DNA of 56,183 nt, filler included, from Jimgerdemannia flammicorona (GCA_003990765.1; 3 parts of 3 records of this genome joined end to end with filler, not necessarily neighbours in it); one strand, 5' to 3'. Shown: positions 552-37,523, numbered from the whole stretch's first letter. Notes: a model not told the origin generated them from the sequence alone. Numbers and translations: made by a program.

Positions 552-1685
552 TTATTTATCGTTCTCCGCCAACACCAACACCGAGGGCCACTGCATCTTG
601 AAGGTCTCCATATCCCTATCTTTCAAACCAAGCACCTCCTGAAGCTTGCGCGCCATCCTCTCGATCGGATCCTCAGCGTCCGGGAACTTCTCGCGGTAGT
701 TGGCATAGGAAGACCAAGTCTTGATGAAGGTCTCGAAGTGATCGAGGGTCATGTCTTGCTCCATGAATGGAAGGGGCGAGACAGAGCCGATATTGTCGCT
801 GTTGAGCTCGTCGTGGGAGAAGTGCCATTGGACATTCTTGAAAGGGAAACTCACGTCGCGGTAGAAGTTATTGAGGATACTGATCCTGGGCTCTGAGTTG
901 AAAGGTAGAAAATATTAATTTTAGAGACGGAAAATTCACGTCGATTGTGATCATGTTATCGGAAGATTTCAAATCTACCCCAGTAGGGGCCCAATTCGTT
1001 GACCCCACAGTCGTAAATGATATTGCTCGCCTCCTTGTTGCCCACGACGATGGCATACGAGTATCCAAAGACAGCTAGTGTGCCTTGCGGCTTAAGGATG
1101 CGCTTGGTCTCCTCAAAGAACTTGGGATGATCGAACCAATGGAAAGCCTGTCCTGACGTGATGATATCGACGCTGGAGTCGGCAAAAGGAAGTTCCTCGG
1201 CGGGGGTTTCCCGGTAGTCGATGTTGGGTTTCTGGACGGCGTGGGAGAGCATCTAGGACGCCAATAAATGGTTCAGGTGCGGAACGGAGGATCGAACAAT
1301 GTGATTTTGGTGAGATATGGTTGGTTGCTAGTGATGACAATGCAACAGATGGCAGAAGTAATATACGTACGATATTTGAGCGGTCAGTGCCGTGAACCTT
1401 TTCAAACTTCTCGCTCAGGGCTTCAGCAACTTGACCATTACCTAATGTAATTCGATATGGAAGGTTCAACGAATTGGAACGCACAGTCATGGTAATTATT
1501 GCTGTAACGTTTTCAAGTCCATAGCTCCAATTACACTTACCCGTCCCAACATCTACCGCGTCCAAAAACTCGCCTCCATTCTCAGCATGAAAGCAGTAGA
1601 TTAGATCGTACAGCGCCGGAGCGTAGGTTGGGCGAAAATTGCGATAGCGCGCGGCGTTGAAAGTTGTGCGGGAGAAGGTGGTCAT
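552..1685 (-). CDS. Class I SAM-dependent methyltransferase (Methyltransf_11, Tmt1/Crg1-like); exons 1685-1541, 1441-1371, 1252-979, 892-552
   Basis: YRNFRPTY, motif I DVGTG|NGQ, AEELPFADSSVDIITSGQAFHWFD, LKPQGTLA, TWSSY; GT-AG junctions restore the frame. Confidence 0.88.
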
Positions 1686-2651
1686 TGTATTATGGATTAT
1701 GTGCAGTATTCTTTTTCAATGAGTGCAAGTGTAGTCTGACAAGGGCGCTTTTATCCTCGCTTCAGGACCACAGCATTAGATCGACCGGCTCATTCCTTTT
1801 CCGCAGTATGCACTGTGAAATTTGATTGGCGAAACGGAGATGCATGGGCTTCTGTGACTAATTCTTACCCGACCTCTCGGGGTTCAAGCATTTAACGCCA
1901 TGCAGGGATATAGCTTTAGGTTTTGTGAATCTTGACGGTGGCTAGTCATAGACATCCGAATTCTCCCGCTTAGAAAGGGAATCATGAATCTACCGTTCCT
2001 CATTCCCAGAATAGAAGTTGCCCTCACTTGCCTAATCCAAAGCAAGCGGCAATCTTCCGATCTCCGATGCCTCCGTTCCTGTGAGTAATTCGCATGTGTA
2101 TATCTGACAAGCGTCCGTCATGAGGTCATGAGCGTCATGTGTATTAAAATGTTATAAGCTGATTGGCACAAAGTTATTTACCAACGACAATGCCCCAAAT
2201 GACCAAAGCGAAACCCTATACGAGCTGTATTTATCATGACTCATGGGATGAAGTTTTGGTGAAATCCAGGCTTGAGTCGGACATCGATAAAATCAATGCC
2301 CCTAAGACACTAAGATCCTAAGGACAGCTCCACCCAGCAAAGCCCAGCAAAATCACTGGCGCATGTATTGAGTTTTTCACGACCCAATCCTTTTGTAAGG
2401 GGCTGGTCCCTGAGTATTTCTTATTGCTTAGTCTTCACTAAAGAATTGACTGAGATATAACTGAGAGGTATTCATATATCATTTATTGGAGCATTGCATG
2501 CCATTTAACAAATAAAGGAAATAACAAAGGGAGAAAAGACCACGAGTGAAATCACATGAAGAGCAAAAAGAAAGAAAAAGTGCATGAATAACCACAAATA
2601 AGGATCAATAGTCAATAGGGATCATTAGCAAAAAAATCCTTGAGCGGTCTC

Positions 2652-4115
2652 TCACTTTTGCAACAGGGTAGTGATCAACCTCTTATACCCGTCCACCGAC
2701 TGTAGCAACTCCTTCTTGCTGATGAACTCGTGCGGTGCGTGCGCGCACAAGATAGACCCGGGCCCGTACAAGTAGGATTTGACAGGACTCTTCCAAGCGC
2801 CGATATCTATCGCAAGCACGGGACGAATAAAATTTGTTTCAACAGAGCGGGGCGAGGATCCAAATCCATATTTCCCGAGAAAACATCAGACACAATGTGA
2901 CTTACCAGTATTATATTTCATGACATCAGTCTCGAACCCTTCCACAACCTCGCACCTGACGGGCTCAAATGTGATCTGCCTAACGAGGCGGACGCCCGGG
3001 CGGTCGCCGACGGCTTCGAGGATGAGGCGCCAGAGGTCGTCGACAGTGGTGGTAACGCGGCACATGATGTCCGCAGAGGCGAGAGCCGGAATCACGTTGG
3101 CCGCCACTCCGCCGGAGAGCAGGCCGATGTTCATGGTCGTCTCACCGAGGCGCGCGTCAACCGGAAGTGCCTGAAGGTGGGTGAAGTGAGTTGGTGAAAT
3201 TCCGGGGATGGAGAGGTGAAGTTGTGAGCCGTACTTACTAGGTGTTTCAGCGTGTAGAGGACCTCTATTAGGGCATCGGTCGCGGAAATGCCGAGCTCCG
3301 GGTAGCCGGAGTGGGCTGGGGTGAGGTGAGGTGAGAGTATAAGCAAGGTTTAATTGAAACTGTGGAATCAAGAAGAACCGACCGCCAAAACTCACCAGCT
3401 TTACCGGTCACCTCCACGCGAAACTTGATGATTCCCTTGTGACCTTTGGCAAGAATCAATTCGGTCGGTTCACCTGTACGCAGCCAGTTGGGAAGACGTT
3501 AGCACACAGTTATCATCCCCATGCCAGACACAGAATGCATCTACACACCGACAATCAAAAACTCGGGTGTGATTCCAAGATTGTTTGCCTCCACCATGCC
3601 GACGTGATCGACCTCCTCGCCAACGACGTAAAGTACACTGAATAATCAAGACGAAGCGAACGTCATCAAATCAGTGGGCAAGGCACCCACTCTAACATAT
3701 AGCAACTTTCCATCCTTCCGTCGACCTACCCCAAATCCCCCTCCCCCAATCTTCCATCTCTCCATAACTCATCCGCGGCAACAATCTGCGCAGCAACGCT
3801 TCCCTTTGCATCAGCACTCCCCCGTCCATACACGTTCTCGTCGTCCTCTCTATACGGAATATAAGGCGGTACGACATCGATATGAGAGTTGAGCACGGCG
3901 CGCACGTTCCGGTTCTTGCCCGGGTAGGCGAAGACGTTCTCGCGCGCCGGGCGCGACCCCTCGGCGGGACTGACGAGTTGGGTCTCGACGGTCCAGCCCA
4001 AGGCGCGGAGGTGCTCGGCGAGGAATACGGAGCATGGATGCTCGTTCTCGGTTATGCAGTCGATGGAGACGAGGGAACGGTGGAGCGCGAGGAGGGCAAA
4101 ATTGGTTGTCGACAT
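2652..4115 (-). CDS. Peptidase M20 family (acetylornithine deacetylase-like), multi-exon
   Basis: NSHIDVVPP, YGRGSADAKG, VGEE, GEPTE, AHSGYPELG, GGVAANVIP, YGPGSILCAHAPHEFI; stop at 2652-2654. Confidence 0.88.
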
Positions 4116-4586
4116 TGAGAGTGGGGTCAGGATGAGTTGTTTCGACAAATTTTTTTGATGGTGCGTCACGTGACAACCGATATATATTCTAACCCTAACC
4201 CCGTCACACAAACGGATGACCTATGAAAGGAGGGTACATTTACGGGAACAAAGACCGAAGAATTTTAAGAATACTCAAGCAAGTCATGCAATGGGTACCA
4301 AAAATGAAATTAGATACAGCATGAAAAGTGTGGAAGGATGAGAAGCGTGAATATATATATATATATAACGACACGTTGTGTCATGTTAGGCCAAACCGGC
4401 TGCTGCCGACCCTGTGATCCGGCCGAGAGAACGTGCGGAGTACACACTCCCGTTGTAACCCATCCCAAATCCGGAATGCACGACGAGGAGATGGCAGTAA
4501 ACACTCTCAACGCTTCCGTTCCGGATCCCAACCAACCACGAACCAACCAAACCCACCAACTAATTCCCCCGGCCATACACGACACG

Positions 4587-7325
4587 CTACGCGCCATAAA
4601 CGTCCGTTGCCTCGAACTTGGAGGTGAAAACGAATCGCTGTTCGTTGACGAGTGCCTCGATCCTGAGCTCGGTGAGGGAGAAGATGAAGTCAATACGCAT
4701 GTCGACACGGTCGCCGATCTTGACGCTGGGCAGGTGCGGGATTTCAATCGGGAAGTCGGCGATCTTGGTTATGCCCCGGTCCGTCACCTGCCGCGGAATC
4801 GGCGGGTCGTCGTCGTACGCGTATAGGTCGGCTGTGTGTTAAAAAAATTGACGTGAGCACATAGAGTAGTGAGAAAGCACAAAACACACAAGAATGGGAT
4901 GAAATATTGTACGCACCTTCCGTGTTCTTGGGATACGTGATCCAAAAGTTCTTACTAATCCTAAAATCAACCCCAATTCTCTGCCCCTTCTTAATATAGA
5001 CATCAAACCTAGTCGAGCACCTCTTAATCCCATCGTTGGTAACGACGGCTGATTCCTCGGGGTCTTTTCCTTCCTCGAACGTCATGCGCGTCATCACACC
5101 ATAACTGCGCCTCGAGATCTTCGACGTAACGATGCGCGGGTTGAGGCCGAAATAGACAGCCCCACGTACGACGGCCAGCTCGCCGCGGGGCGGCGCGGCG
5201 ATCTTTCTGACGCGTGCGTCGAACTGAGCGCGGACGCGGTCGTACAGGTAGTCAGAGGAACCAAATCCTCCCACGAGGAAGATGGCGTCCAAACGTCCCG
5301 GGACCTGCGAGATCTGCTGCTCCATAAGCTCGAGGACTTGCAGGATCACCGGGTCGAATACCTCCGTTTTAAGCTCGCTGGCGGGAAGGCGAAGGACACC
5401 GTCCTGAAGGATGCGGGAGAAAAAAATATTTAGTAAGGAGGTGTGCGATCGAATGTACATCAAAGCACTGCTGGCATATCAACACATAATGTCATCATAC
5501 CTCAAGACCAATCTTTTCGTCCGTGAGTTGGTCCAAATTGGCGGAGGCCGGGAGGTTGATGAATTGATCTTCGTTGCCATCATACCCAGGCTACGCAATG
5601 GAATAAAATTTTATCAATCAACGAATCTCCCATAAACCGACAAATACATCCCATCACAATTTAACCACCAAAAAATCCAGGGCCAAAAAAAAAAAAAAAA
5701 AAAAATTCAACCTTAACCGTCTCAACAAACGAATCCATCATACTCTCAAACGCGCACGCAGGGATCTGCGCCATGTAATCCCTAAATTTATACGCCAGCA
5801 GCCTCCGCATATTATTATCCAGAAATACGCTTCCACACGCGCCGCCATGGCCGGAGGTGACCTCCTTGAGTGTCCTCCCGGCAGAGGTATCCTCGATCTC
5901 GTAGACGATAAGATCAACAGTGCCGCCGCCGGCGTCGCAGATCATGAAGGTGTTGCCGTGTTTCAAGTTCCACTGGTCGCACTTCTTCTCACAGTACAGT
6001 GCCGCGGCCTCGGGCTCCGAGATCAGCATCAAACGTTCGGGGTGGTCGTCCGGTTTCACAATGCCCGAGCGAACGGCGGCCTCGCGCATGGTGGATTTGG
6101 CACGGTCAGACCAGATGGCGGGGACGGTCAGGCACTGAGTGGGACGAGTTAGGATTGTGATAAGATGGAGAGATCGCATTATATATTCTCTTAAACCCTC
6201 CAACACCAACATCATGCTGCCCCCTCCCCCCCTCTCTCTCTCCTTCCTTCCTCCTTCACTCATCTACATACGTATCGGAACTGATGCGGCCCGTAGTTAT
6301 TCGCGAAGCCCTTGCGCAACTCGGCCATAATGTGACCGTGCATGCACTTGAGGTAGTCGACGATAGCGTCGAGGGCCGTGAGCCCCTCGTTGAGAGGAGG
6401 TAGGCCCAGCTTCTCGTAATCGTCGTCGAGGTAGAGCTTGAACTGGTGGAGGAGCGTGCCATCCTTTGAGGTCGGCTATAGGTGTAAGGGAAAGAAATAG
6501 ATGGGTTGGTTGTCGTTCGCTTGGTCTGTGCACGAGTGGAATTGAGCTGTGCGGACTTTGTGTACCGAGATCTCTCAGGTGGGAGAGTATACACAGGATC
6601 GGGCGTACCTTTAGCATGGTCAGTCGCGCTCCGTTACCCCATTCCGTCACCTTTTTCAAACCTTTCCTGTAATACAGAAGGGTCGGCGTCTTTGGGTATA
6701 TGTTGTTGTTTTGCTTGGGCCATTTCGTGATGTCGTGTATGTCAGCTTCGTTCTGCGCGAAGGCGTAGCTACATCCCTGGATTACAAGTCAACACAGAAC
6801 CGTGTTAGTGATTCATTGTTGACACCATCTCGAAAGCGTGACGAACCCGTACCAATCCGAGCCAACCCACCCCACTCCACATACCGAGTACGTCGTGCCA
6901 AAGTCGATGGCAATCACGATCGGGTACTCCTTGTAGTTGAAGTTCGCGCTCTTGGCCGTGTCCTGTTTGGGTGTGGGCCGCCCCTGCTGCGACTGCGACG
7001 AAGGCAAAGGGGAGGGGGAGGGGGAGGGGGGAGCGTGGCTCGGCTGGTGATGGTATTGTTGCTGTTGTGGTGGCAGTGGTGGTGTAGATCCTCCTAGGGT
7101 AGGTGAGCCTGGGTAGAACGGTTGATGGGGCGTGGCATACGACTGAGGGGTTGGGTAGTATGGTGGTCCTCGGGTGGGAAACTGCTGTTGAGGGAGGTTC
7201 TGCGGCCGTGGGGAAATTGGGGAGGCTGAAGGGGATGGTCCCACCGGGGACATTGGGCGACCGTTTGTGAACGGCTGGGTGCTTTTCTGCATAGAAGGGA
7301 TGGATGTTCGGTGTCGTGCGTCCAT
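4587..7325 (-). CDS. HSP70-12A-like actin-fold ATPase with Pro/Gln-rich N-terminus, multi-exon
   Basis: IAIDFGTTYS, LTVPAIW, ISEPEAAALYC, ICDAGGGTVDL, FLVGGFGSSDYL, VVRGAV. Confidence 0.88.
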
Positions 7326-7999
7326 GGGTTCAAATAATAGTAGAAGCCGGAGGAGGGGGTAAGAAGGTGCAAGGACTGTCCTTTGACACACCTTATTTAT
7401 AGTCTGGTCTGCTGCACACCAAAATAAAACATGGTACCTTGGCCATCCCGTAATCTTTCTTTCTTTACCTTCTTTGGTTTTCCCTCCTGTAATCCTGTCC
7501 TTGTTGATTGGCAGAGTCGTCCGCCGACGCTATATTCACTCTGTTCTCATAATAAAAAAAGAAATCAAACCGTTCCACATTAACGCTCTATCTCCAAAAA
7601 GGATTCCACCGTGTCCCCACCCAAGCATATGATGGTCTGCCCAACAAGCACCTTTCGGAAACGTTTGCTGTAATTACCTAGACGCCGATCCAGTAAAACA
7701 ATTACTGCGCGCAGAGGCAGTAATAAGAATGTGGAACACATTGTTTTCTCACGAAATATACATAAACAGATGGGAGCGAATCATATTGAAGTAAACGGAT
7801 CTATAAGTTACGCTGGGCTGAGGGGCAGAAAATCCCAGCGGTGGGCTGAGATCCCAACAGTTTCCAAATCTCGCATTATACTTCAGGAAATGTAACGTCA
7901 AACCAACCAAAAACCATTTTGGGACCAGACATGACGTGCATTTAGAGGGGTGTGTACTTATAGAGATTAGAGTATATGCTATGTGATATGACACCTTTC

Positions 8000-9247
8000 T
8001 CTACTAGTAGCTATCATCCTGATAGTGGCTATCACCCTGACAGTGAATGTCACCCCATAAATAGCATTCTATAGTCAACCAGATAGTGACCAAGATAGCA
8101 ACCACAATGTATAAAATACCCCAGAGACAAGAGTGAATAAACCTCAGTTCCGAAATACAAAGCAAAAGACAAGTTTGTCTACTATACTTCAAGAGATATA
8201 CCTGTCAAAAGCCACTTGATCCTAAAGGAATTGAATTGCAACACTTAGGAGAAATGCCTGCTCTACAGCCACTACTAAGAGATTGTGAGCTTTGCCCCTT
8301 TCCTACTCTGGTCCACTTTCTGTTATAAAGAATGAGTCTGTTTTGGTTTACTTGTTAGATAAGTCTGAAGATTTGCTACCTAAGTTCAAGGAAGAACTTC
8401 ACTGCCATTTCCCAGTAGAAGCCCACTGATTTAGGAAGAATCTGCACTATCTGAGTAGTATTCCCAGTTAAAGCTACTAATTTAGGAAGAATCTGCAATT
8501 CTAAGTTATCCATACCATCTGAGTTATTTCCCAGAAGCCCACCAATTTAGGAGAATTCATGTCATCTGTTATTTCCAAGTTATCTGTATTCCCAGAAGAG
8601 TCTGATTCACAATATCTGAGTTATTCATTTGTTCTCAGTGAGCTGAATCGAGTTATCTGTCAGAAATTGCATACTTTTAGAGATTGTCTCACTACACAAA
8701 TTGTGATATTTCCAGTTGATCCAAATAAAGAACCCAGTCATACTATATAAGATTGTTATACAGAAATTGTATAAAGAGAACTACTAAGTTGCCAGACTGT
8801 CACACCTAGAAGATCATCATACTATATAAGATCATCACTCAGAAATTACATACTTTTGGAGATTATCATACTATATGAAATTCTATCAATTTCCAGTTAA
8901 CTTAAGAAGGAAACTCATTTATACAAATTACCACTATATCCAGAGAACAGTCCCAATAAGGAAACCACTTGCAGATATCCAGCTTTTGACTATTATACTA
9001 CTAAACACCAAGGATCTCAGGAATCTTAGAACATTTTGTTACTTTTTAACAAAGTAACTAGAGGCTCAAGCCAAACTACATCAACCCCCAACCTTATAAT
9101 TTACCTCCATTGAGTCAGGCATGTTATAATATATATTATTAGTATATTATTAATATAGATATTCTTGAAGTAGTATAGTTTTATATATTTGCTAATTATA
9201 AGAGAATTTAGTTTATATAATTTATCTATATTAATATATAATATAAT
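8000..9247. repeat. Degenerate AT-rich repeat-derived DNA with imperfect ~45-50 bp tandem units (8400-8620)
   Basis: CpG-poor; recurring TTCCCAG..AAGCCCAC.AATTTAGGAAGAATCTGCA units; no recognisable protein. Confidence 0.45.
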
Positions 9248-10216
9248 TGTAAGAGAGTTGCTTTTTAGGGTAACCATTATATAGTTCTGGAAGAGTTTTC
9301 TAGAAGTTCTGGATATTCTGGAAGACTGTTTTCTTATGGTCAAGATCAATTTTATATGGAGTACATCCTCTATGCTTATTGATTTCAAGATCAGATTGAT
9401 GTCTCAACCAAAGTCCTTTTTCAGACTAGTTCTAGATATTCAGGATTTTCCATATTTCAGAAAGTTTAAGAAACTAAGACCAGCTTAGTTGAATTGGTGT
9501 ATTGCTGCAGACAATACCCAATTAGGAAATTTCATGATGGGGTTAGGAGTGAGATCTAACAGAGAGCAGATTTACTTAAGAGTAGTTTGTAGATTATTAA
9601 ATAGGTTTATTCACTATTTATGATATTACTATACTAAGAGTAGTTGTGTAAAGAGATATTGTGGAGAAGTGCTCAGGAGTTGTGTTTGGATTGTTCTTGT
9701 CTGGTGGTATTTGACCATGTCTTCCAGAAGGCAGCTGATCTGATAGTAGCTTGAAATTTGTCTAATTTGGTGGGCCTCACTAAGCATATTCAGAGCATTC
9801 CATCAGGCTTCTGTGAAGTAGAGGAGTGCCAGGCTATGGATATTCATAAGGGGCAGAGGGGGTGTGGCTTGGTTGACAATGGCATTCCAAATGTCAGTAT
9901 GGATACAGTTGTAGATCTCAGTGGTCATATTTGTGTATTTAGAAGTTGTGATTATTGTTTGTTTTGGTTTTTTGTTTCAACATGTCTTGGTGCTCGATAT
10001 ATATACATTTGGTTCTAATTGGTAAGATTCTGTTTGTGTAAATCTTGTGTTCCATGACTTCATGTTGACTCAGCTTTGTGTGCTGTGACTTCAGTTTGAC
10101 TCAGCTTCATGATCATATAGATGATTTCCAGATTTATTCAGAGGTTGCATGTGATTTCAGTGGCTTGTTCAGAGGGTGACATGTGATTTCTGTGGCTTAG
10201 AGGTTGTGCACTTACA
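9248..10216 (-). repeat. 3' LTR (short, internally deleted 969-bp form)
   Basis: TGTAAG...CTTACA termini; colinear with 16697-17665. Confidence 0.93.
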
Positions 10217-10230
10217 ACTCTCCCCTTCTT
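10217..10230 (-). other. Polypurine tract
   Basis: AAGAAGGGGAGAGT on the minus strand directly before the 3' LTR. Confidence 0.85.
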
Positions 10231-10659
10231 AGCTTTTGATATCCTCATTGGGGCCTTCTAATTTTGTTCTAGTATTGTTATACTATTTGGGAGATCAAAA
10301 GTCCAGTGAAGTCCATTTTTCTCAGAAAGTGGCATGCTTGTAGTACAGTTGTCTAATGTGTTGGATTCATATATTAAAGGGTCATGTATTCAATATTGTA
10401 CACCAGAAGTAATTCTGACGTCATTCATTGCTGGAGAATTTTCTCTAAAGAATCTTCTTAAATGTCTATACCTCATTTCCCACCAGTAGTATGGAGAGAA
10501 TAGGCTTGCTTTCAGTTTTGCTATTTTTTCAGAGGGTCAGTATTCTTTTGTCTTGACTTACTGAGTTCTTGATTTGATTTATGATAATTATACTGTTCAA
10601 AAGGTAATATATAGTATGTACTAATAGGTGTTAGAGTGTTCAGGTTTCAGTTATTCAGG

Positions 10660-13600
10660 GAATCGTATTCCTGAACTAGGTTGGTAGTATTCTGGAGGTT
10701 AGTCTTAGGTTCCTATATTGTATCATGGATTGGATAACCTTTCCATTTGACAAGATACTCAGGATAGTTCTTGTGATCATGCTTGTTGAGGATTTGTTCA
10801 ACTTCATATTCTTCTTAGTCATTAATAATAACAGATATAGGTGGTTTGATAGTTTGGTTCAGGAATAGCTTGTCATCATTTTCATTATATCACTTGAGAC
10901 ATTGAACATTGAAGACTGGGTGAATCTTAATAGTATCTGGTAGTGCCAATTTGTAGGAAGTAGAAGAGACTTGTGCAATGACTTCAAATGGTCTGATAAA
11001 CTTGCTATTCAATTTTGTAGATGGTCTGTGCTTGAGATTGTCAACTCAGTATCCTCGGATATCTAGTAGAACTTTTTCTTCAATATCAAAGGTTTCTTCT
11101 TAGCAGTGTTGGTTAACATACTGTAACTGTTGTTCTTGAGCTCATAATAAATTCTCAATGGCAATCTGGCTTAGATTGCACATTTAAAGTAGGAATTCTT
11201 CAACAGCTTCAACTGTGGAGGGTTTATCAGTAGTTTGGATAAGTGTCAGAGGGGTGTTTGGGTTTTGTCCAGTATTGACAAAGAATGGGGTCATTTCTAG
11301 AGAGGCTTGCTTGCTATTGTTATAGGCAAACTTGACTGTAGTGAGGTGTTCATATCAATCATCTTGTCTGTAGGAAACATAGTTCCTTAGCATTTGTTCC
11401 AGAGTTTGGTTCATTCTTTCAGTTTGGCCATCAGTTTCTGAGTGAAAGGCTGTGGATAGTGTGAGTTTCATTCCAAGGTATACATAGAGGGCTTTCTAAA
11501 AATGGCTGGTGAATTTCAGGTCTCAATCACTAATAATGATCTTAGAAAGACCATGATAGCAGAAGATATTGTCAAACAAGAGTATAGCTATGTCTGGTGC
11601 TGTTGCAGTAGTAGTAGTTGGTACAAAGTGAGCTTGTTTGCTGAGATAATCTACAAAGACAATAATTGCATTTTTTCCATTCTTGGTTTGGGGTAGTTAT
11701 ATAATAAAGTCTATAGAGATTTATTCCCAATTAGCAGATGATACTGGAATAGGGTGTAGTAAACCAGGTTTTGCTAGTGTTGAGGACTTATTACATTGGC
11801 AGACATTACAGGAAGTGATATAGATCTTTAGTTGATCTGCCATGTGGGGCCAATAGAAGTTTTGTGAGATAACTTCATAGTATTTGTCAAATCCTAAATG
11901 TCCAGTGGTAGGCATATCATAACATTCAAATAGGATAGTCCTTCAGAGGTCTCGGTTGTTTGGAACATACAATCTGTCCTTGTAGTAGATAGTATTGTCC
12001 TTTAGTTGGTATTGATAATACTGAGTATACTTGTCAGCATCATTACTGTTCAGAATTTCTTAGAGTACTTGAGCTTCTTTATCATTAGCATATACTGTGA
12101 TAATTTGTTCTATAATAGAGTTTGTAACCAGGGTGAGGGTTTAGATAACTTCTTCGATTGGTGGTCTAGAGATTATATCAGTAACAATATTTTCCTTGCC
12201 AGGATGATACTGAATTTTATAGTCAAAGTTGGTGAGGACTTTCATCTATCTGGCTTGCTTTTGGGAAAGAGTAGCCTATGTCTTAATATTGACTAATAAC
12301 TTATAGTCAGTTAATACAGTGAAGTATGCTCCTTCTAGGTATGGTCACTATTTGATCAGAGTATCTACAATGGCTAACATTTTCTTCTTGTAAGTTGCAG
12401 GAGTGATAGGCCACAGGATATCCTTCTTGCATGAGCACTGCTCCAAAGACTAGGTCAGAGGTATCAGTAGTAACTTCATATGGTAGAGCAGAGTTTACTA
12501 CTTGAAGTACTAGAGTAGTTATCAAGATATCTTTCAGTTCTTGAAAGGCAGTATCTTGCTCAGATCCCCAATTTACAAGATTGTTGAAGTCTTTCTCTTA
12601 TTTCATGGTCCAGGGCTGTTCTTCTTTCTTACTATGCTTGGTCATTTGGGTGAGAGCAGTGGTGATTTTAACAAATTACCTGTAATAGTTTGCTAATCCC
12701 AGGAATGACTGGAGGTCTTTTAGCTTCTTGGGTCTGGGTCAATCCTTAATTATAGAGATTTTACTGGAGTCCACTTTGATTCCATTTAGTGTGACAATAT
12801 GTCTAAGAAATTGAATTTTCTTCAGAAGGAATTCACACTTACTGAGTTTTGTAAACAGTCAGTTTTCTCAGAGTTTCAGTAATACTAGTTCAAGATGTTC
12901 AAGGTATTCCTCCAGAGTTTTGCTGAAGACTAGGATGTCATCAATGTAGACAACAACGAATTTATCCAGATATGGGTGTAGAATGGTGTTCATCAGTATC
13001 TGGAAGGTTGCAGGAGCATTAGTTAAGCCAAAGGGCATAACCAGGAACTCAAAATGTCCATAGTGGGTTTGGAAGGCTGTCTTGTAGATATCTTCTTCTT
13101 TCATGGTAATTTGCCAGTAACCATTTCATAGGTCAAAGGAGCTCATAAATTGTGGGTTAGTAAGTCTATCAAATATTTCATTGATTCTGAGTAGTGGGCA
13201 ATGGTTCTTGATGGTCTGTTCATTGAGGTCATGATAATCAATGCACATTTACAGGTCTTCTCCTTTCTTGACAACAAAGAAAACTAGTGCACCATAAGGC
13301 AATATACTGGGTCTGATGAATTCTTGTTCTAGGAGTTCATCAATTTCTTTCTTGAGTGCATCAATTTCTCTTGGCAATATAGTAGATTGACTAGAAGGCT
13401 GGCTTAGCATCTGAGATAGTCTTGATTGCATGGTCTATTGCTTGTTTAGGAGGTAGGCCTTTTGGGAGCTTCTTTGGGAATATATTTTGGAATTTCTGGA
13501 GTAGTGATCTGACATAGCTGTCAACTTTGGAAAAGTCTTCTTCAGAGTTCTTGGGTTCTCCTTTAGATGGACAGATAGAGATAGCAAAGAGAGGGCATTT

Positions 13601-16600
13601 CTTGGGCAATTTCTTGAGTTGTAGCTTATTGATGTGGATGATCTTTGGTCCAGAATTACTAGAGTTGAGTGGGTCTTTTTCATCTTGCAGTTTGAAGTTG
13701 TGGTGTCCTTTCTTGATGGTCAGAGAATGATTTACCCAATCAATCATGAGGTTCTCTTATTTCAACCATGGAGTTCCAAGAATGATCTCATTGTCAGAAA
13801 GTGGTACAATTTGAAGGATAACATGTACTTAGTAGTCACTAATTTGGAAGGGTAGATTGCAGACTTCTTTGCTGATAATATGAGAGGTTCCATCAGCTGT
13901 GGCAACTGCTTGAGTTTGTTGTACTGGAGATGTGAAGACCTTGAGTCTGTTGGCTGTTTCTTTATTGGTGAAGTTGCCTGAGGCACTGCTGTCTATCATA
14001 ATCTTGACAGGTGCTTGGTTGACAAAAGCTTGAAGTGTAAGCAGTTTGTCTGATCCAATGCTGGTGATTTCAGTTATAGGAGCTTTCCTTCTGTTAGTTC
14101 TTCTTTGAGCCAGTTTGTTGACATAAGAGAAGTAATCATCAATCATTCAGGAAGAGTACATTCCAATGCTATAGGGACATTGGCCACTTGGTACATATCC
14201 ATCTTCGATTTTCTTATAGAATTGTTCTTCCTTGTTCATAGTAGGTTGGGCTGGGGCCTTGTTTGATGAGCCAAATTCTTTGGATCCTTGGATAGTAGGT
14301 AGTAGTTCAGAGACTTCCTTGACTGTTAGGGTTGACTTGATTTTTTCGAATAGGATCTAGGCAATGTAGAAACCAATGAGAATCTTGAAGAGTGTCCAAC
14401 TATGGTTTTGGATAAGAACAATAATTTCACCTACATAATCTTTGTCAATGACTCCTCCTTCTACTGAGAGTCCTTTTAATGCTAGACTGCTGTGACAGCA
14501 TATTCTTCCAATATATCCTTCAGGGATTTAGATACTAATTTCTATATAGATTTGCTTGACTTCTTAGTTGGAGACTGTAGCTTCTTCAGCTACATACAGA
14601 TCATATCCAGCTGCTTTTTAACTTTCTTTGGTTGGGGTCTTAGCAGTTTGTCTTAACTTGACAAAGTCCAGTATTCTGGTAGTCAGGTTATTGAGATAGT
14701 GTAGAGTAGTAATAGTTGCTCATATTGCTGTTTGGGGTTTTCAGTTAGGGCAGGTACTGGCCATGTGTCCTGTTTTTTGGCAATAGAAGCATGCTCTGCT
14801 TCTTTGAAGTTCATTCCTTTCTCCTTTAGTAAATTTCTTGAAGGTACTTGGCTGAGTGGGTTCATGATTTCTAGATGTCCATGAGGTGGATGTGGAGGGA
14901 GCTCAGGGTGATTCATGCTTGGATTCTTCTTTCTTGGTCCAAGTCTTTTCCTTGTTATTAAATTGTCTTTGAGGCAGAATTGATCTAGCTATTAGAATTC
15001 ACTTGACCATAGTCTTAATTCTTGCCAGGAACCATTGTTGGTGATTGCAACCAACTGGGTGGCCTTGTTCTTGGATTTTTCTAGTAAGCCATTCAGGCAG
15101 GGCATTGAATAAATAGTCTGCTCTTGTACCATTTCGTGCTTCATCATTGGCAATATATCTTAGGTCAATAGTGTTCAGGAGTGACTCAAGTTTTATATAA
15201 AAGGTTTCAAATTCTTCTTTGTCATGTATATCAAATTTGAGGTTGTGGAGTTTTACTCGAGATTCAGCAATCATAGTTTCATTATAGTATTGAGCAATTA
15301 TGAGTTGCTTGAGTCTAGGGGCTGCAGGATGGGTGCCATATCCTGGGGCATTGTTTGCTGCATTCTGGGCAACTACTGCAGGTTGGGTATCCCATATGAG
15401 GGGTTTTTCAGGAAGAGTTTGCCACCATTCTTCAGCAGATCCTTGGAAGAATATAAAAACTTAGCAGACATAGGCTGTAGTGGTAGCAAAGAGTTGTTCC
15501 AGAGTGTGGTCTTGATTGTTTGTCAGAAGGTGGTCAGCAACTCACTCATTGGTCTATTGATTGGCTTTGAAGTTGGTGTCAACTATACTAATAAAGCTTT
15601 GGACTTCTTATATAGTACCATTGAAGATAGGTAGGCTCAGATTTTTAGTAGGTTGGGTTTGTTTGGCTAAGGTAGTAATGGTTGCTGCCATTATTACTAC
15701 CTGGGCTGTAAGGTCTAGAATCTGTTGGTTCACTATATTGTTTACTGGAGGCAGTTGAACTGCTGATAATAGTATTACTGGTACTACTTGAGATACTGGT
15801 ACAGAGTGTGATGGGGTTCTTTGGGTCTGTGTAAGTTGCTGGAGTAGTAATTGTAGGTCTGAAGTAAGGGCTTGATAGATAGCTGTTTGTTGCTATATAG
15901 GTGTATTCTGTTCTGATGGAGGTGTGTCTTCTTCAGTGGTGTATCCAGGATTGAATTCACTGAGATACTCCTCCTCCTCTTCAGTTTGGTCTCTGTATAA
16001 TTGGGTTTGCTCGGCATTAAAGTAGATAGAATTAGTTATATATCTGATTTCAGATAGACTTAATTCAAAGTCAAGTTCTGGTTCAGTATTGGTCTCAGAT
16101 TCAGGTAGAGCTATAGCAGGGCCTGCTTTAGGTTCAGGATCAGATTGTTGATGAAGAGTTTCTCTTACTTCTTCCTTAAGAATATGGTAGGCCTTACTAT
16201 TCTGGAATTGGTAGTATAATGCAGTCTTGGTCCTGGTATGGTGAAAGTTGGTAGAGTTGAGCCACTTAGCTACAGAGGCTTGGGCTTTGTGAGGGACTAA
16301 GACTAGAAAGACTGCTGCTGGTTATCCTAGGTCACTTGGATTTGTGGAGCTGACAAACTCTTATTGAGAAGAGTAAAGAAGGCTTCAATAAGACCTTCTT
16401 CATCTTGATTTGCTGGGTGTAGTGCAAGGAGTTCGGTGAATAGAGTTTCGCCTATTTGCTGGTTTAATTAGAGTACTTCTTTCTTTGAGTGAAGTTTGTC
16501 CCACTTATTGCAAGTGTGGAGGTCAAATTGTCCTTATACATCAGGTTCAATTCTCTCCAGATTGTCAGATGGTTCAGATAAATTCCAGTTCAGAGGTTGG
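10660..16600 (-). pseudogene. gag-pol polyprotein with many stops; 5' limit approximate
   Basis: CFYCQKTGHMASTC knuckle (~14750-14792); protease [39 protein letters not shown]; integrase GHLG..YWP..CNVCQ; chromodomain EYEVEQIL..EYLVKWKGYP (~10690-10815). Confidence 0.92.
14265..14670 (-). pseudogene. Trimeric dUTPase domain inside gypsy polyprotein, between nucleocapsid and protease
   Basis: AAGYDLY, PEGYIGRI..SSLA, GGVIDKDYVGEI, IA*IL, QGSKEFGSS (five motifs, degenerate); in frame with the CCHC knuckle. Confidence 0.9.
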
Positions 16601-16681
16601 GCTTTATACTAACTTATAGAAATTCTCAGAAAGGTTTATAGTGGGGTAAGGAAGCATCTTGAAGTGGAATTGGATTGTAAA

Positions 16682-16693
16682 CTGCTGCTACTA
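16682..16693 (-). other. Primer-binding site, probably tRNA-iMet
   Basis: TAGTAGCAGCAG 3 nt after the 5' LTR; reads as a G>A-mutated TGGTAGCAG-type PBS. Confidence 0.6.
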
Positions 16694-16696
16694 AGT

Positions 16697-17665
16697 TATA
16701 AGAGAGTTGCTTTTTAAGGTAATCATTATGTAGTTTTGGAAGGGTTTTCTGGAAGTTCTGGATATTCTGAAAAACTGTTTTCTTATGGTCAAGATCAATT
16801 TCATATGGAGTATATTCTCTATGCTTATTGATTTCAAGATTGGGTTGATATCTCAACCAAAGTCCTTTTTTAGACTAGTTCTGAATATTCAGGATTTTCT
16901 GTATTTTAGAAAATTCAAAAAACTAAGACCAGCTTAGTTGAATTGGTGTATCACTGCAGACAATACCCAATTAGGAAATTTCATAATGGAGTTAAGAGTA
17001 GGACCTAACAGAGAGTAAATTTACTTAAGAGTGATTTGTGGATTATTAAATAGGTTTATTTGCTATTCATAATATTGCTATACTAGGAGTAGTTGTGTAA
17101 AGAGATATTATGGGGAAGTGCTCAGGAGTTGTGTTTGAATTGTTCTTGTCTGGTGGTGTTTGACTATATCTTCCAGGAGGTGGCCGATCTGGTAGTAGCT
17201 TGAGATTTATCCAATTTGGTGGGCCTTGCTAAGCATATTTAGGACATTCTATTGGGCTTCTATGAAGTAGAGGGGTGTTAGGCTATGGATATTCATGAGG
17301 GGTAGAGGGGGTGTGACTCAGTTGATAATGGTATTCCAAATGTCAGTGCAGATATAGTTGTAGATCTTGGTAGTCATATTTATGTATTTGAAAGTTGTGA
17401 TTGTTATTTGTTTTGGTTCTCTGTTTTGATATGTCTTGGTGCTCAATATATATACATTTGGTTCTGATTGGTAAGATTCCATTTGTGTGAATCTTGTGTT
17501 CCATGACTTCATATTGACTCAGCTTTATATGCTGTGACTTTAGTTTGACTCAGCTTCATGATCATGCAGATGATTTCCAGATTTGTTCAGAGATTGTGTG
17601 TGATTTCAGTGGCTTGTTCAGAGGGTGATGTGTGATTTCTGTGGCTTAGAGGTTGTGTGCTTACA
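16697..17665 (-). repeat. 5' LTR (short 969-bp form)
   Basis: Direct repeat of 9248-10216; TSD ATAAT adjacent at 17666-17670. Confidence 0.93.
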
Positions 17666-17844
17666 ATAATTAAGAGATATTCTTTATTAATTTTGTATTC
17701 AGCAAGATATTGAGTTACTAATATTCAGTCTGGTTCTAATTTATAAAGTAGATTTAGAGATAAGATAAATAAGATAGATAAAATAGATGAGATAGATAAG
17801 ATATAATAGATGAAATATAATATATAAGATAGATATGATAAACA

Positions 17845-18444
17845 GCTCCTTTCTCTGCTATCTTACCAGTTACAAGGTTTGGTAGGCGACCTTCTGAGTC
17901 CCCTTTCCCCTAATATTACCCCCTCTACCTTGGGTTGATTTGCTGTACCTGCTGGGGCATAGTGGGAGGAGGGCAATGGTGCTGAGTTGCCCCTTTATCG
18001 GTATCAGATTAGTGCTTTCTCAACTTTTTTGCAGATTCTGGTGCCTTTAGCTATATCTGGAGTATACCTGTTTTGGTGCAGCACCTTCTTCCTTTTGCCA
18101 TTACCAATAAGGAGTTGTCTCAGTATGTCTTGGGCTATATAGGGAGTCGGCTGACCTTGGGCATCGAGTACTCAGTGTAGGTTACCTGCAGGTCTTCAGT
18201 GCCTATGGTAGGGCCCTCTGGCTTTGGTGAGCTTCCTGGCAAGTATGGTTCTGGCATAGGTGACTGTTTTTCAGGTATTGTCGGGATGGGAGGGGAGATG
18301 GCCATTACAGATAGGAGAATGGATGATAACAGTGAACCAGTAGGGTGTCAGGCTAGGGATGGTCATTGGGGCTGGGGTGGGTGCTGCTTCAGTGGGGCCT
18401 TTTGATTGGTGCAGTGTAGTTAGGTGGTAGGTATCACTCTCGGC
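17845..18444 (+). mobile_element. 5' half of the 1.2-kb poly(A) retroposon family, interrupted by a hAT-type insertion
   Basis: Begins GCTCCTTTCTCTGCTATCTTACCAGT, matching the reverse complement of the element ends at 24840 and 39397. Confidence 0.8.
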
Positions 18445-18662
18445 TAGTGCTCCTAACGAGTCAATTTAATCCGGATTGGATTCGGATTGATTCGGATTGA
18501 ATCCCATCCGGATCAACTCGGATGGGATTCGAATCGGATTCGAATCAACCATTGTTTTGATTTCCAAATTAGACAATTAAATGTTTACATCAATAATTTG
18601 ATGAATAATCATCCAAATTTGATGATCTTGGTGTCATTTGAAAGCCCTTAATAAAGCCTATC
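18445..18662. mobile_element. hAT-type MITE end, truncated by contig end
   Basis: TAGTGCTCCTAACGA terminus like the 22780 element; subterminal TCGGATT/GAATC repeats. Confidence 0.65.
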
Positions 18663-18762
18663 NNNNNNNNNNNNNNNNNNNNNNNNNNNNNNNNNNNNNN
18701 NNNNNNTTAATTAATTAANNNNNNNNNNNNNNNNNNNNNNNNNNNNNNNNNNNNNNNNNNNN
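18663..18762. other. Artificial contig spacer
   Basis: 44 N + TTAATTAATTAA (stop in all six frames) + 44 N. Confidence 0.97.
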
Positions 18763-18923
18763 AAAAAAAAAAAAAAAAAAAAAATCAAATTCAGATATTA
18801 GTTATTGTCACTTACCATGGCCATGATGCTTGATGCATGTTAGATATGTAAATCTATTGTTTGACATATTTATTTATGTTTATCAATCTCCCCCCAGCCT
18901 GCTACTTTATGATCTTTGCTCAG

Positions 18924-21038
18924 GAGGCCTGACGGCCGTGCCAGCCACAGCGGTAAACATGCGACTAGGCTCCACTGCGGCGGCGGGCGGTCCGTCGATC
19001 GTTGGCATGTGAGTGTTTATATGTGTTACATAGGCGGGTACCACCACGCGACCTCTATCATATTCCACCGCAACGCCAACAAGAACGTTTGGAGCGAAAA
19101 TCATGCATCACAATCCATCCCATGCCGCGTAGGTGGATTCGCCACGACCCACGTGTTCCCACCGACCGGCTCGTCCAGTTCGCAGCGCTAGTCTACACGC
19201 GCACGGTGAGGCGCGCGGAAGACGATCACAGGGGGTTGGTGGCCATAATTTCGCAGGACGGTGAGGAGGAGGGGGTGGTGAAGGCGTGGTACCAGGCTGA
19301 GGAGGAGGAGGTAAGTTTTGGGTTTGGTGGGTCGTGGATACCTTATTTTCCACATTCATCCTTAACGTGCGCCGACGAATAACATTTTCATTGTATCAAA
19401 AGCCTCCGGAGTCATCAGTCGAGATCCTTACTGTCACCCACGACCTAGACCTTGCTGCTCTTGAGCGGGGTAACAGTGTCGCGCCGGTCCGGCTCGAGGG
19501 GACAGCGTTTGTGCGGGCCGCGGAGCCGGAGGCGCAGGGTTGGCGGGGGGAGAAAGAACGAAATGTGCAGGAAGTTCGGACGGATTGGAAGCGAAAAGAG
19601 TGGCAGGCGATGGAAATCCGGGACCTCGCGCCGGAGGAGGATCGAAGTTTTGTACGTTCCGAGATGCTGGAGCAGAGCGGATGGTAAGATAAGCCACCTC
19701 ACTGATCTTCTTTTCTGATTGCTTGGTGCTTTCGGAAACGAGAGGAACTACGATTGTATCGATAGCACATATGTAATTAAGTCATGTGCGTTCTTATCCT
19801 TCAGGTTGGAATATGACCGCCATATGCAACTCCCGCCCAGCCTTTTTCGGATACCGCCACGACACACCAACACCCTTTCCGAACCAGATATTGGTGCAAA
19901 TCACTCCATCCCCGTAACGTACAAATCTTCCGCCATCCAGTCACCGATCGTGGCGAAACCTGCCATGGCTACAGTCGGCACCAACACGACATATTTCTAT
20001 CCAAACGACCGACCCGGAAAACCAATGCCAGTCCGACAAAGGGATTCCGCAACAAAAACAAATACGACGATCTTTGCACGGGATTTCGTCGCACCGCGAC
20101 GGCTCGATGCCACCGCTCTATCGTCACGACCCAACGATTTGCGTCGGCAACTACCGGACACTCCACCGCTCCGCACCGAGGATCTCGACCGCACGGCGGC
20201 GATATCGCTCGCCACCAGGGATTTCGACCCGATGGCGATGCAGAACGATGAGACCATGTGGACAGCGCCCGTCAACGGCGTCACGTACCGGCCACTGTTT
20301 GAGGTGGTTGCTGTGCCATCCGTGCGGGTCGACGAAAGTGCGGGGACGGGCGGGCGCATTCGGAGATGGGGAGAGGGAGTCGAGGATCATCAAACTCCGC
20401 CGTTCGATGATCGTAACCGGGAGGAGGATGAGGAGGAGGCGCTGATGCGGAGAGTGAGCGAGGCGTTGACGCCTGTCGGGACGAGCATGTATGATGAGCG
20501 GAGCGTGGTTGAAGGACAAGAAATCATTGCGAGGCTGGTTGATGATCCGGAGAAGACATTTATGTTTTTGGGGGAGGGGGGGGAGAGTGCTGGGGTCGAG
20601 CGCGCGCGCGCGGGGGATCAGGGATCGGATGGACGATACCGGTGGGATGTGGGCGAAACGGTGCAAGAAGGGGTAAGCCCTACTTTATAATTTATGCCCC
20701 AATTTTTATTTATTTTATTTATTTCCTTTCATTTCACTTGGTGGGAGCGTCACCATTTGGCATCAATATTCAAAAGAGCAAAACAGCATAAAATAAATTA
20801 TCATTATTTTACAAATACTCACTGCCCAAACTCGATTCATTTCTTTCGGCTACTAACCGATTACACAACGCAGCCCACCCTCGCCCGCATCACCGCCAAG
20901 TACATGCCGCTGACAGCGTCGGCCTGGAACGCGGTGGAGGGGACGACGCATGGCACAGACGGGTACTCATACGCTACGCTCGAGTACCTGAGAAAGTTCG
21001 AGCTGGTCAATCGGGGCCGCCGGGGATCTGGATCTTGA
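18924..21038 (+). CDS. STIL/Ana2-like centriole assembly protein, 5'-truncated; exons 18924-19008, 19133-19310, 19403-19683, 19805-20672, 20874-21038
   Basis: Spliced product PSIVGMWIRHDPRVPTDRLVQFAALVY...GLVAII...AWYQ resembles the STIL N-terminal domain; C-terminal ARITAKYM...SYATLEYLRKFEL resembles the STAN motif; canonical GT-AG, branch point TACTAAC at 20851. Confidence 0.65.
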
Positions 21039-22158: not shown

Positions 22159-22680
22159 ACGCTGCCTGTTGATTGCTTTGAAAATATCTCTCAATGCTTC
22201 AATAAAGAACCTTCAACCCCACCATGGTGGCGCTGCTTGATTGCATTTTGCAACAACCTGATGCAACCTCCTCGTCGTTGACCGACGTTATCGACATCTG
22301 CGCAGCATCCCAAGGACTGTACGACGCGGACCTCAACATCACTCTTACCCCCAAGCCCACCAAGATGTTCCTCCAGTCGCGTGCGCCTAAGACCGCGATC
22401 ACCGCGTATCGCAACAAGCTCATGGAGACTTCTATTGTTCGTAGGAGACAGCCTTTCATGCACCGCGCCAGGAGCACTACAACTCGAGATACCACTCGAA
22501 TAGCTATTCGAGCAACCGTAGGGATATTTATAGTGGCAAGCTATCAGGTGAGTGTTCTCTGTTATGTTGAACAATTGCTTGATTCGATCGCATTATCCAG
22601 TGTTATCCTCTTATATTATGCACATTATTGTGGGAGCCTGCGGCTGAACCAATACCAATGAGGATGACATTGTGGCCTTG
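22159..22680 (+). pseudogene. Possible F-box gene remnant with frameshift
   Basis: TLPVDCFENISQCF then LLDCIL in another frame; GTGAGT and GTAAGC donors; TATAAAAG at ~21967. Confidence 0.3.
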
Positions 22681-32696: not shown

Positions 32697-35600
32697 ACCA
32701 CCTGAAGAAATCTGAAGCCTGTTTTTTCTATTGCCAAACAAGACACATTGCAACTAAATGTCCTAAGAAGACTAGTGAACTCTTAAGACCAGTCACTGTG
32801 TTGTCCAAAGATACACCTGTCAATCCCACTATTAGTTAACTTGAGCTCAAGATCAAGAAGCTTTATCTGAAGGCTCAGATCTCTCAATATCAAATAGAAA
32901 GAGACATTGGTCTTGACCTCCACTCAGTCAAATAAGTTACTATTCCAGCCAAAGGCTATACTCTGGTGCCTACTGGAATTACAGTTCAATGCTCTGAAGG
33001 ACATTATGCTAGAATTACACCATGATCAGGACTCAGTATCAAATATCATTTAGATATAAGTACTGGTGTCATTGACCTAGACTTTCAAGGACAAGTTCAA
33101 GTCTTGCTTGTCAACCAGAAGGATCAAGACTACACAGTTAAAGAAGGAGACTGAGTTGCACAAATGATCCTAGAAAAAGCCAGTCAACTTAAGATTACAG
33201 AAATCCAAGAACTCCTTGAAACCAAATGAGATTAAAAGGATTTTGGCAGTACTGATCAAGCAGCAAGTCTTAGTAAAAATCAAGCTCAAGCTATGCTTAT
33301 TTTCAAAGGCCTAGTCAAAGGGAAAGAAGTTCAAGTACTCATAGACAGCAGAGTTGCAGAGAACTTCATCAATCAGAATCTCATTAAAAGCCTCAAGATC
33401 CTCACTAGACCTGTATCCAAGAATAATAGTATAGTTACTACAGACAGTACTCTGCACCCCATCAAGTCAATTGTTGCCAAACTACCCATTAAGATCCAGA
33501 AATATTGAAAATGAGTAGACTTTGAGGTTGCACCACTAGGAGATTATAACTTGATCTTAGGAAAACCCTGGCTTACAAAACACAACTCAGATATTGATTG
33601 GTACAAGAATGAAGTCACTCTACTTTAAGATGGAGCCAACATTATGATCATGATAGACAAAACTATGAGTAAGACCCAGATTGCAATACTGTCAGCTTTA
33701 TAGTACAAGAAAGTACTCAAGAAAGCAATGCATGTCTTCATTGTAATGATCTACTCCAAGAAATAAGATAAGAGACTATTAGTCAATAAAAGCATCAAGC
33801 TACTGCTAGAAGAATTTAAAGATGTCTTTTCAGATAAGCTACCTGGTCTACCACCTACATGAGAAGTTGATCATGAAATCAAACTGACCCCAGGAGCTAT
33901 ACCACCTAAGAAACACATATACTATATATCATCACTTGAAATTGAAACAGTCCAGAAGAAACTAGAAGAACTACTTATACAAGAAGCCATTAAGCCAAGC
34001 AAATCTTCTTATGGCTCACCAGTCTTATTCATCAAGAAGAAGGATGGTATCCTATGAATATGTATAGACTATCATACACTCAATAAACTCACTGTCAAGA
34101 ACCACTATCTGCTATCTTTGATTGATCAAATCTTTGATACTCTCAAGAATGTCAAGTACTTCACCAAGTTAGATCTTATGTCAGGATACCACCAGATTCA
34201 AATCAAGCCAGAAGATATTCCCAAGACTACATTCATGACTCTCTTTGGACTCTATGAATTCCTGATCTTAGCATTTAGTCTCACCAATATACCCACCACA
34301 TTCCAGACTCTGATGAATAAGATATTCAAGGACTAACTATTTATTTTCCTGTTAGTATATCTTTATGACATCCTGATCTTTAGTGCAACTAAAGAAGAAC
34401 ACCTCAAATACATTCAAATAGTCCTAGAGATTCTACAAAAATATAAGCTTTATGCTAAGCTCAAGAGTGTGAATTCTTCAAGGAACAAGTTGAATATCTT
34501 GGCCACATTGTCTCTATATAAGGAATTCAAGTAGACCTATACAAGATAGAAGTAATTGAAGAATGGCCTGATTCTATCAAACCTCACAGAACTCTGATCC
34601 TTTCTTGGTCTAGCTGGCTATTACTGCTGCTTTGTCAGAAACTTCTCTGGTATTACTGAGCCACTAACTAACCTCATAAGAAAGGCTCCACACTCAGACT
34701 ACTATATACCCTACATCTGGGACCTCTTTTGTCAACAAGTCTTTCAAGAACTCAAAAACTACCTGACTCATACTCCAGTTCTGCATAATACAGATCAAGG
34801 TCTAAAATTTATAGTTACTACTGATGTGTCAAATTTTACCATTGGAGCAGTCCTATCACAAGATGATGACAAAGGACATCACCCTATAGCTTTTGAGTTC
34901 TGCAAGCTGGCCCCAGCTGAACAAAAGCTAGCTACTCACAAGAAGGAACTACTAGCAATAATATATGTACTAGACTACTGGTGATACTATTTAGAAGGTA
35001 TTGAGTTTGATGTCATTACTGATCATTAATCTCTCAAATACATCAACACCCAACCTACTCTGTTATATCTATAAGTCAAGTGGAGCCTCAAGCTTCAAAC
35101 CTTCAATCCAACAATCATCTATAAGCCTGGTAAGACACTTATAGTATCAGATGCCTTATCAAGATGCTCAGACCTCACCACAATTATATAAGTTACCTTG
35201 GCATCAGAATTCCTAGACCAAATCAGACAAGCTTACAAAGAAGATACAGTTGCCACTAGAGTTTTCTTGAATGAACTCAAGGATATATATACTGTTGAGA
35301 ACAACTTAATCTATCATTAAGATCAAGTCTACCTATCTGAAAACATGAACCTATGCTACAAGGTTTTGCAAGAACACTATGACTCCTCTCTTACCGGTCA
35401 CCTGGAAATTGAGAAGACTGTCAAGAACATCCAATACCACTACTATTGGCCAAACATGGTCAAGGAAATCAAGAACTATGTTGCCAGCTATAATCTATGT
35501 CAGCACAACAAGTCTACTAACCAAGCACCTGCCAGTTTGTTACAACCACTGTCAATTCCTATCAAGAAGTTTGAGTAAGTCACCATGGACTTTATAACTC

Positions 35601-37423: not shown

Positions 37424-37523
37424 NNNNNNNNNNNNNNNNNNNNNNNNNNNNNNNNNNNNNNNNNNNNTTAATTAATTAANNNNNNNNNNNNNNNNNNNNN
37501 NNNNNNNNNNNNNNNNNNNNNNN
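37424..37523. other. Artificial contig spacer
   Basis: 44 N + TTAATTAATTAA + 44 N. Confidence 0.97.

Follow-up and report, generated by a model that had tools for sequence, protein, structure and literature searches.

A STIL-like gene, with SAS-6 and PLK4 elsewhere in the genome, suggests that a centriole core was kept in the non-flagellated fungus Jimgerdemannia flammicorona

We examined a stretch of 56,183 nucleotides from Jimgerdemannia flammicorona (hereafter the window), which consists of three contigs joined end to end by N-linkers at 18663-18762 and 37424-37523. On its plus strand, ending at 21038, lies the 3' half of a spliced gene that quite probably encodes a homologue of STIL (also Ana2 or SAS-5). 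Animal STIL is a binding partner and activator of PLK4; phosphorylated in its STAN motif, it recruits SAS-6 and so starts the cartwheel (PMC5095913). SAS-6 and PLK4 genes are present in the same genome, and together the three suggest that a fungus without a swimming stage kept a stripped-down centriole core that was thought lost in land fungi. The parts of the STIL-like gene and its surroundings are given below, where P0123 is an Endogone sp. protein of 931 amino acids and X1 and X2 are sequencing runs that resemble RNA:

18663..18762, no strand: artificial linker (N44, 12 bases, N44) joining separate contigs, outside the gene
18763..18897, plus strand: remaining 3' end of an intron that the contig start interrupts, with a poly-A run; acceptor AG at 18896-18897
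18898..19008, plus strand: exon A, opening the second subdomain of the STIL-like N-terminal domain, with SIVGM at its end; 65% to P0123 residues 438-477
19009..19132, plus strand: intron 1, GT..AG, 124 nucleotides, predicted; the single RNA-like contig across it retains it
19133..19310, plus strand: exon B, the WIRHD... block, helix and strands of subdomain 2; 56% to P0123
19311..19402, plus strand: intron 2; splice joint in X1 and X2
19403..19683, plus strand: exon C, closing the N-terminal domain (VEILT...PVRLE) and opening the linker
19684..19804, plus strand: intron 3; splice joint in X1 and X2
19805..20672, plus strand: exon D, long and mostly unstructured middle, candidate PLK4-docking region; 54% to P0123
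20673..20873, plus strand: intron 4; splice joint in X2
20874..21038, plus strand: exon E, STAN-like C-terminus and stop codon; 75% to Endogone, the exon best conserved between Jimgerdemannia and Endogone
20961..21005, plus strand: GYSYATLEYLRKFEL, STAN-like core; its Ser at 20967-20969 may correspond to S1116 of human STIL

The gene is real and it is spliced. Joined, its five exons form a single open frame of 533 codons from 18899, while the other two frames hold 14-15 stops, and all four introns are GT..AG. The peptides quoted in the first-pass annotation are present in the sequence; its start at 18924 needed correction, as the first exon in the window begins at 18898, directly after the acceptor AG. 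Four of the five listed runs were compared with the region, and three of the four introns were seen spliced in contigs of X1 and X2, two runs whose RNA nature is a guess; X3 and X4, which reach over only about 250 and 180 bases, were not used as evidence. Because X1 differs from the window at four places, we take it to come from another genotype. Intron 1 is predicted from its GT..AG ends, from the restored frame and from the Endogone model, in which these two blocks are likewise joined. The two J. flammicorona models on deposit treat the intron 1 region differently from the Endogone model.

The remainder of the gene lies elsewhere. The first part of the window, 1-18662, is by itself contig G000:C2143, whereas the STIL-like gene maps to the start of contig G000:C2144; because it lies only 135 bases from that start, the window holds the 3' half of a longer gene. 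The genes to the left of 18662 are on a different contig and are uninformative on the synteny of the STIL-like gene. P0123 maps to the assembly G000, which is fragmented into 35,354 contigs, in seven pieces, with residues 117-361 on C1480 (minus strand, about 60-1100, ending in a homopolymer run at the contig edge) and residues 438-930 on C2144, so that the gene is split by the assembly, with about 75 codons missing. An X2 contig carries 255 further letters before 18897; the last 30 continue the frame and look like the adjoining upstream part of the Endogone protein (a 30-letter consensus, compared by eye), which points to an exon outside the window that is spliced on before 18898. The pattern of this exon was not found in the G000 assembly.

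Three protein records among nine candidates matched the last exon: P0121 and P0122, both labelled Jimgerdemannia flammicorona and identical to it, and P0123. By these database labels the host is a fungus of the Endogonales, in line with the non-flagellated host that had been supposed. The Endogonales belong to the Mucoromycotina and form zygospores in underground sporocarps (PMC6899921), are placed within the non-flagellated land fungi (PMC7865070), and have a crown group dated to 340-76 million years ago (PMC12592215). The low-complexity N-terminus of P0123 contains, at about residues 100-165, a three-fold basic repeat (SKIP..QSKSA), and one similar copy is found in Jimgerdemannia (L003, about 700-900, minus strand); our guess is that this is an SxIP-like microtubule-binding motif.

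The identity of the N-terminal domain was approached through profiles and through one true STIL sequence. The 5' exon on C1480 (109 amino acids) has STIL_N (PF15253) as its sole match among 24,736 Pfam families, with E=0.0045 and 16.4 bits against a cut-off of 27 bits; the match covers profile positions 24-75 over 50 residues. For comparison we used L047 (Ga0187743_1042247, 5004-5830, minus strand, Joint Genome Institute metagenome), an intron-free, animal-like STIL N-terminal domain which scores 274 bits in Pfam and matches 5OI9, the solved Trichoplax STIL N-terminal domain (PMC5928214), at E=1e-44. This was the one true STIL among at least 120 loci from a metagenome motif scan, the other 119 not being STIL by eye, and because it was selected by the motif of the first block only the remaining blocks count as evidence. 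The three top BLAST blocks between P0123 and L047 lie nearly on one diagonal (offsets 271, 264 and 269). When the window-encoded part, which is without the motif used to find L047, was aligned to L047 with hhalign, the best block paired IVGMWI with LVGIWI and only 2 of 150 column shuffles reached its score; 7 of 150 did so for the middle block. The L047 contig could not be extended to the STAN region, and viral and prokaryote collections, when scanned, yielded no other STIL. AlphaFold models had a mean predicted local distance difference test (pLDDT) score of 32.0 and 31.6, too poor to test for the duplicated MPN-like fold of 5OI9, and three fold searches with them gave no match, the models being too poor for a verdict. 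ESM Atlas searches with two parts of the protein returned nothing usable.

At its C-terminal end, the last exon reads S-Y-A-T where the human S1116 peptide has S-F-A-T, and S-Y-A-T is conserved in Endogone. The likeness of this exon to STAN presumably extends more widely. The human peptide is known from an antibody against STIL S1116, SPNNM(pS)FATKK, and S1116 is the main PLK4 site for SAS-6 binding (PMC4477857). The pattern S[FY]AT, which was chosen after the sequence had been seen, occurs 9 times in 462,514 control residues, or about 1e-3 per 54-residue exon. Within exon D, some short blocks are conserved in Endogone, and two short helices are predicted at low confidence (P0123 804-815 and 828-838). 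A match to CC_STIL (PF25775), the central coiled coil that binds PLK4 PB3, on contig C1088 (22.3 bits, E=0.05) lay in AT-rich sequence full of stops and was set aside as a chance match. A co-fold of the last-60-residue region, unphosphorylated and without an alignment, with two copies of one SAS-6 coiled-coil exon scored 0.00 and was not used as evidence for or against. The first-pass annotation had seen a STIL-like domain order here: the last exon does fit the core of the S1116 peptide, but the window contains only the second half of the N-terminal domain. In all, we regard the gene as quite probably a STIL homologue, and have not filed it as a proven member of the family.

The SAS-6 and PLK4 context is a stronger result than the STIL call, and is independent of it. 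The SAS-6 gene (G000:C2129:1-1553, minus strand; L008) has five GT..AG exons and 385 open codons up to the contig end, and matches SAS-6_N at 77 bits, with 68 and 19.5 bits on two exons. Compared with the PDB it matched SAS-6 entries (best E=2.7e-7), and a head domain followed by a long coiled coil was found, as in SAS-6 proteins. In alignment, its ETNRFK stands opposite ETNAFK of zebrafish, whose F is replaced by D in entry 2Y3W. This conserved Phe presumably drives head-to-head pairing and ring formation. The gene is itself head-to-head with what by eye appears to be a Vps54 gene. The PLK4 gene (G000:C5161, about 4950-8070, minus strand; L009 and L010), read as separate pieces, combines kinase exons with Polo boxes PB1 (32 bits), PB2 (79 bits) and PB3 (E=2.3e-5 to 2N19/4YYP). 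Its linker carries a long Glu/Arg repeat. Both genes are clear members of their families, and in third-position GC content the range of the three genes (0.53-0.85) and the range of host genes (0.64-0.81) overlap.

There is no sign of a flagellum in this genome. Profile searches of G000 gave no match for IFT46, PACRG or B9, and only matches under the cut-off for IFT57 and RSP3; the latter were rejected, the best IFT57 frame being read as repeat-rich. The one dynein heavy chain in G000 was read as the cytoplasmic type, and axonemal dyneins were not found. Eight tubulin matches resolved into two alpha, two beta and one gamma gene; delta- and epsilon-tubulin were not found. In sum, the gene set of flagellated fungi (intraflagellar transport or IFT, axonemal dyneins, radial spoke, PACRG, transition zone) was not recovered here. 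Most flagellar families were searched for in this fragmented assembly without a positive control of the same family, and such absences are fair evidence for conserved flagellar genes and weak evidence for divergent centriole proteins, because the genome search also missed the STIL_N exon on C1480 that hmmscan found: the six-frame STIL_N search of G000 accepted none of its one candidate. As a positive control, p25-alpha was found (G000:C4348:6177-6278, plus strand; L150; 33.6 bits), the published apicortin relic of the Endogonales (PMC8293464, PMC10455874). A CFAP20-domain gene is also present (G000:C5305:2307-2856, minus strand; L145 and L146; 109 and 105 bits), despite the lack of detected flagellar genes. 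In a published survey, 13 of the 16 flagellar rows considered (of 83) are 0 in all Zoopagomycota and Mucoromycota (PMC10406608 Suppl. Data 3).

Centriole-assembly proteins have been reported in no fungi except chytrids (PMC6070874, PMC6559791; the sampling of Endogonales is not visible in these texts). In the same survey, however, the SAS-6 group stands at 0 in Zoopagomycota (12 species) and Dikarya, at 1.0 in chytrids, blastoclads and Olpidium, and at 0.071 in Mucoromycota, that is, 1 of 14 species, unspecified and without comment (PMC10406608 Suppl. Data 2a). J. flammicorona, at 69% BUSCO, is the only member of the Endogonales in that paper's list; its main text does not contain 'centriol', and the portions of its supplement that were examined do not contain 'STIL'. 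We found no report of STIL, PLK4 or a centriole module in Endogonales in the full texts searched, which include few subscription journals, so that an earlier mention is possible.

A number of results weigh against a STIL orthologue that still builds a centriole-like structure. At the gene itself, no splice joint is listed for intron 1, and the X1 contig spans 18897-19310 without a gap; the intron called in the first-pass annotation thus has its GT..AG ends, frame and Endogone model in its favour but is retained in the contig that covers it. Such retention would cut the protein short, with a stop directly after the SIVGM block, and could be a means of regulating the protein. As regards the N-terminal domain, no piece of the gene reached the STIL_N cut-off, about ten pieces were scanned for the single E=0.0045 match, which brings its corrected value near 0.05, and Pfam recognized no family on the five window exons or on P0121-P0123. 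The STIL_N match looked for was thus seen below the cut-off in the 5' exon, as its sole Pfam family, and not in the window part alone. In pairwise comparison to L047, the match with the selecting motif masked was reached by 871 of 2000 shuffles, that of the downstream part by 122 of 2000 and that of the window part by 848 of 2000, none of which is significant. A phmmer search of P0123 against 1.84 billion proteins gave four matches, all close relatives, with no animal or chytrid STIL; a word search with P0123 residues 252-321 found only P0123 itself among 17 candidates; and when P0123, the C1480 exon and two Endogonales profiles were compared with PDB sequences, 5OI9 was not among the matches. 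Elsewhere in the protein, neither hmmscan nor the genome search matched CC_STIL in the gene, although this 29-position animal profile may miss a divergent form, and pattern scans found neither a PRxxPxP CPAP-binding motif (P0122 and P0123) nor a KEN box. In G000, finally, there was no match to the Tcp10_C and tubulin-binding domains of CPAP, to the CEP152 PLK4-binding domain, to CEP85 cc4 or to CEP120, and rotatin was found only under the cut-off, which leaves a microtubule wall without an identified builder, CEP135 and POC1 not having been searched for; nor did we find electron microscopy of an Endogonales spindle pole in the literature.

With these points taken into account, we lean moderately toward a fast-evolving STIL orthologue that has been kept with PLK4 and SAS-6 as a working chain and leads to a short ring or singlet cylinder, but no flagellum. 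On this proposal, an orthologue of about 900-930 amino acids, split here over C1480 and C2144, would be kept in the Endogonales, with SAS-6 and PLK4 as read in the Jimgerdemannia genome. By analogy with the animal pathway, PLK4 would dock on the STIL-like protein and phosphorylate the Ser of the C-terminal SYAT, and the phosphorylated tail would recruit SAS-6, whose head domains may still be able to pair so that a ring closes. What results would be a short cartwheel or ring carrying singlet microtubules, seated at the microtubule-organising centre of the nucleus; it would duplicate once in each nuclear cycle, would bear no flagellum, and would be a remnant of a centriole comparable to the ring of nine microtubules in Coemansia. 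The retained cartwheel module put forward in the first-pass annotation gains SAS-6 and PLK4; CPAP was not found. It is unlikely that the orthologue works with PLK4 and SAS-6 without any centriole-like cylinder, either timing the duplication of an acentriolar spindle pole body once per cycle or acting as a scaffold that seeds it. The missing CPAP, CEP152, CEP85, CEP120, rotatin and delta- and epsilon-tubulin would fit such a role, as would a protein lacking the CPAP-binding motif and the ability of animal SAS-6 to bind Pcp1, the pericentrin of yeast, at the spindle pole body (PMC6559791). However, the SAS-6 described here keeps its head domain, conserved Phe and long coiled coil, and because the genome search is weak for divergent genes, the absence of fast-evolving wall proteins weighs little.

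The STIL call itself could be mistaken: somewhat more doubtful again is that the gene encodes an Endogonales-specific protein unrelated to STIL, with motif matches due to chance, and that SAS-6 and PLK4 act without it or with another partner. All wide searches were blank and the masked pairwise tests not significant, and the eight-residue motif is common in bacterial sigma factors and chance frames, as the 119 of 120 listed loci that are not STIL by eye attest. Yet the Pfam match spans 50 residues, with no other family of the library matching, two further blocks follow in register, a separate C-terminal motif matches a published PLK4 site, and both expected partners are present. That the three genes are decaying, functionless relics of a flagellated ancestor seems very improbable, since their frames remain open (533 codons in the STIL-like gene, 385 in SAS-6), transcripts are spliced, conservation is highest at the predicted functional motifs, and two genera that parted, by a published dating, 340-76 million years ago have both kept the STIL-like gene (PMC12592215); this is so even though the STIL-like protein has drifted far from its family, X1 retains intron 1, and the lineage holds other flagellum-linked relics such as apicortin (PMC8293464). 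We consider just as improbable an undiscovered flagellated stage in the Endogonales, or a zoosporic contaminant of sporocarp DNA. Elsewhere the trio has been recorded solely in flagellated fungi (PMC6070874; PMC10406608 Suppl. Data 2a), CFAP20 and p25-alpha are present and the assembly is fragmented, but well-conserved flagellar genes were not found where the p25-alpha control was, the STIL-like gene occurs in two J. flammicorona records as well as in Endogone, and the third-position GC content overlaps with that of host genes.

The STIL-like protein resembles STIL/Ana2/SAS-5 in the order of its parts, a probable N-terminal domain of about 320 amino acids, a long low-complexity middle and a STAN-like C-terminus with an S-aromatic-A-T core, as well as in blocks colinear with a true STIL_N sequence and in the presence of PLK4 and SAS-6 in the same genome. 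Unlike animal STIL, it is far more diverged, falling under the Pfam cut-off, has about 230 extra low-complexity residues before the domain, lacks a recognisable central coiled coil, PRxxPxP or KEN box as well as a detected CEP85 partner, and ends about 20 residues after the STAN-like core. At the level of the module, the SAS-6 head and coiled coil and the PLK4 kinase with PB1-PB3 are as in animals and zoosporic fungi (PMC5095913; PMC6559791), whereas no IFT, axonemal dynein, transition-zone, CPAP, CEP152 or delta/epsilon-tubulin genes were detected here, and no motile cell is known. Another non-flagellated 'zygomycete' with a possible centriole remnant is Coemansia reversa, whose spindle pole body contains a nine-microtubule ring (cited in PMC6070874); there the structure has been seen and no centriole genes have been detected (SAS-6 in 0 of 12 Zoopagomycota), whereas the Endogonales module is known from genes alone. 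Sanchytrids have nine-singlet centrioles without delta- or epsilon-tubulin and thus likewise keep a centriole core after losing these tubulins and axonemal dyneins (PMC8371127), but a pseudocilium and some of IFT-B persist in them, and their branch falls outside the terrestrial fungi, while the Endogonales lie deep within that group.

If our preferred reading of a working PLK4-STIL-SAS-6 chain is true, this set in the Endogonales would uncouple two losses and provide a living intermediate. It would also name the proteins to seek in the ring-shaped remnants seen by electron microscopy in other 'zygomycetes', and the lineage would offer a natural test of the minimum number of proteins needed for a cartwheel.

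Other features were noted in the window. On the minus strand to the left of the first linker are a gene that reads by eye like a SAM-dependent (S-adenosylmethionine-dependent) methyltransferase (552-1715; the one exon scanned had no Pfam match at E<=0.01), a peptidase M20 gene (2886-4220; Pfam Peptidase_M20 and M20_dimer), and a multi-exon fungal Hsp70-like gene with a proline-rich N-terminus (4744-7100), whose best named matches are in Mortierellales and Mucorales. Downstream of the STIL-like gene, a frame of 151 codons (22206-22661, plus strand) without a Pfam match follows a promoter-like, pyrimidine-rich leader. The rest includes remnants of mobile elements: a degenerate Gypsy-type reverse transcriptase-RNase H piece (34598-34984, plus strand), a degenerate Copia-type pol piece (54018-54983, minus strand), and a degenerate reverse transcriptase resembling that of a long interspersed element (46430-50800, minus strand) in a region where the strands are very strongly skewed (GC skew of about -0.45 across 40-51 kb).
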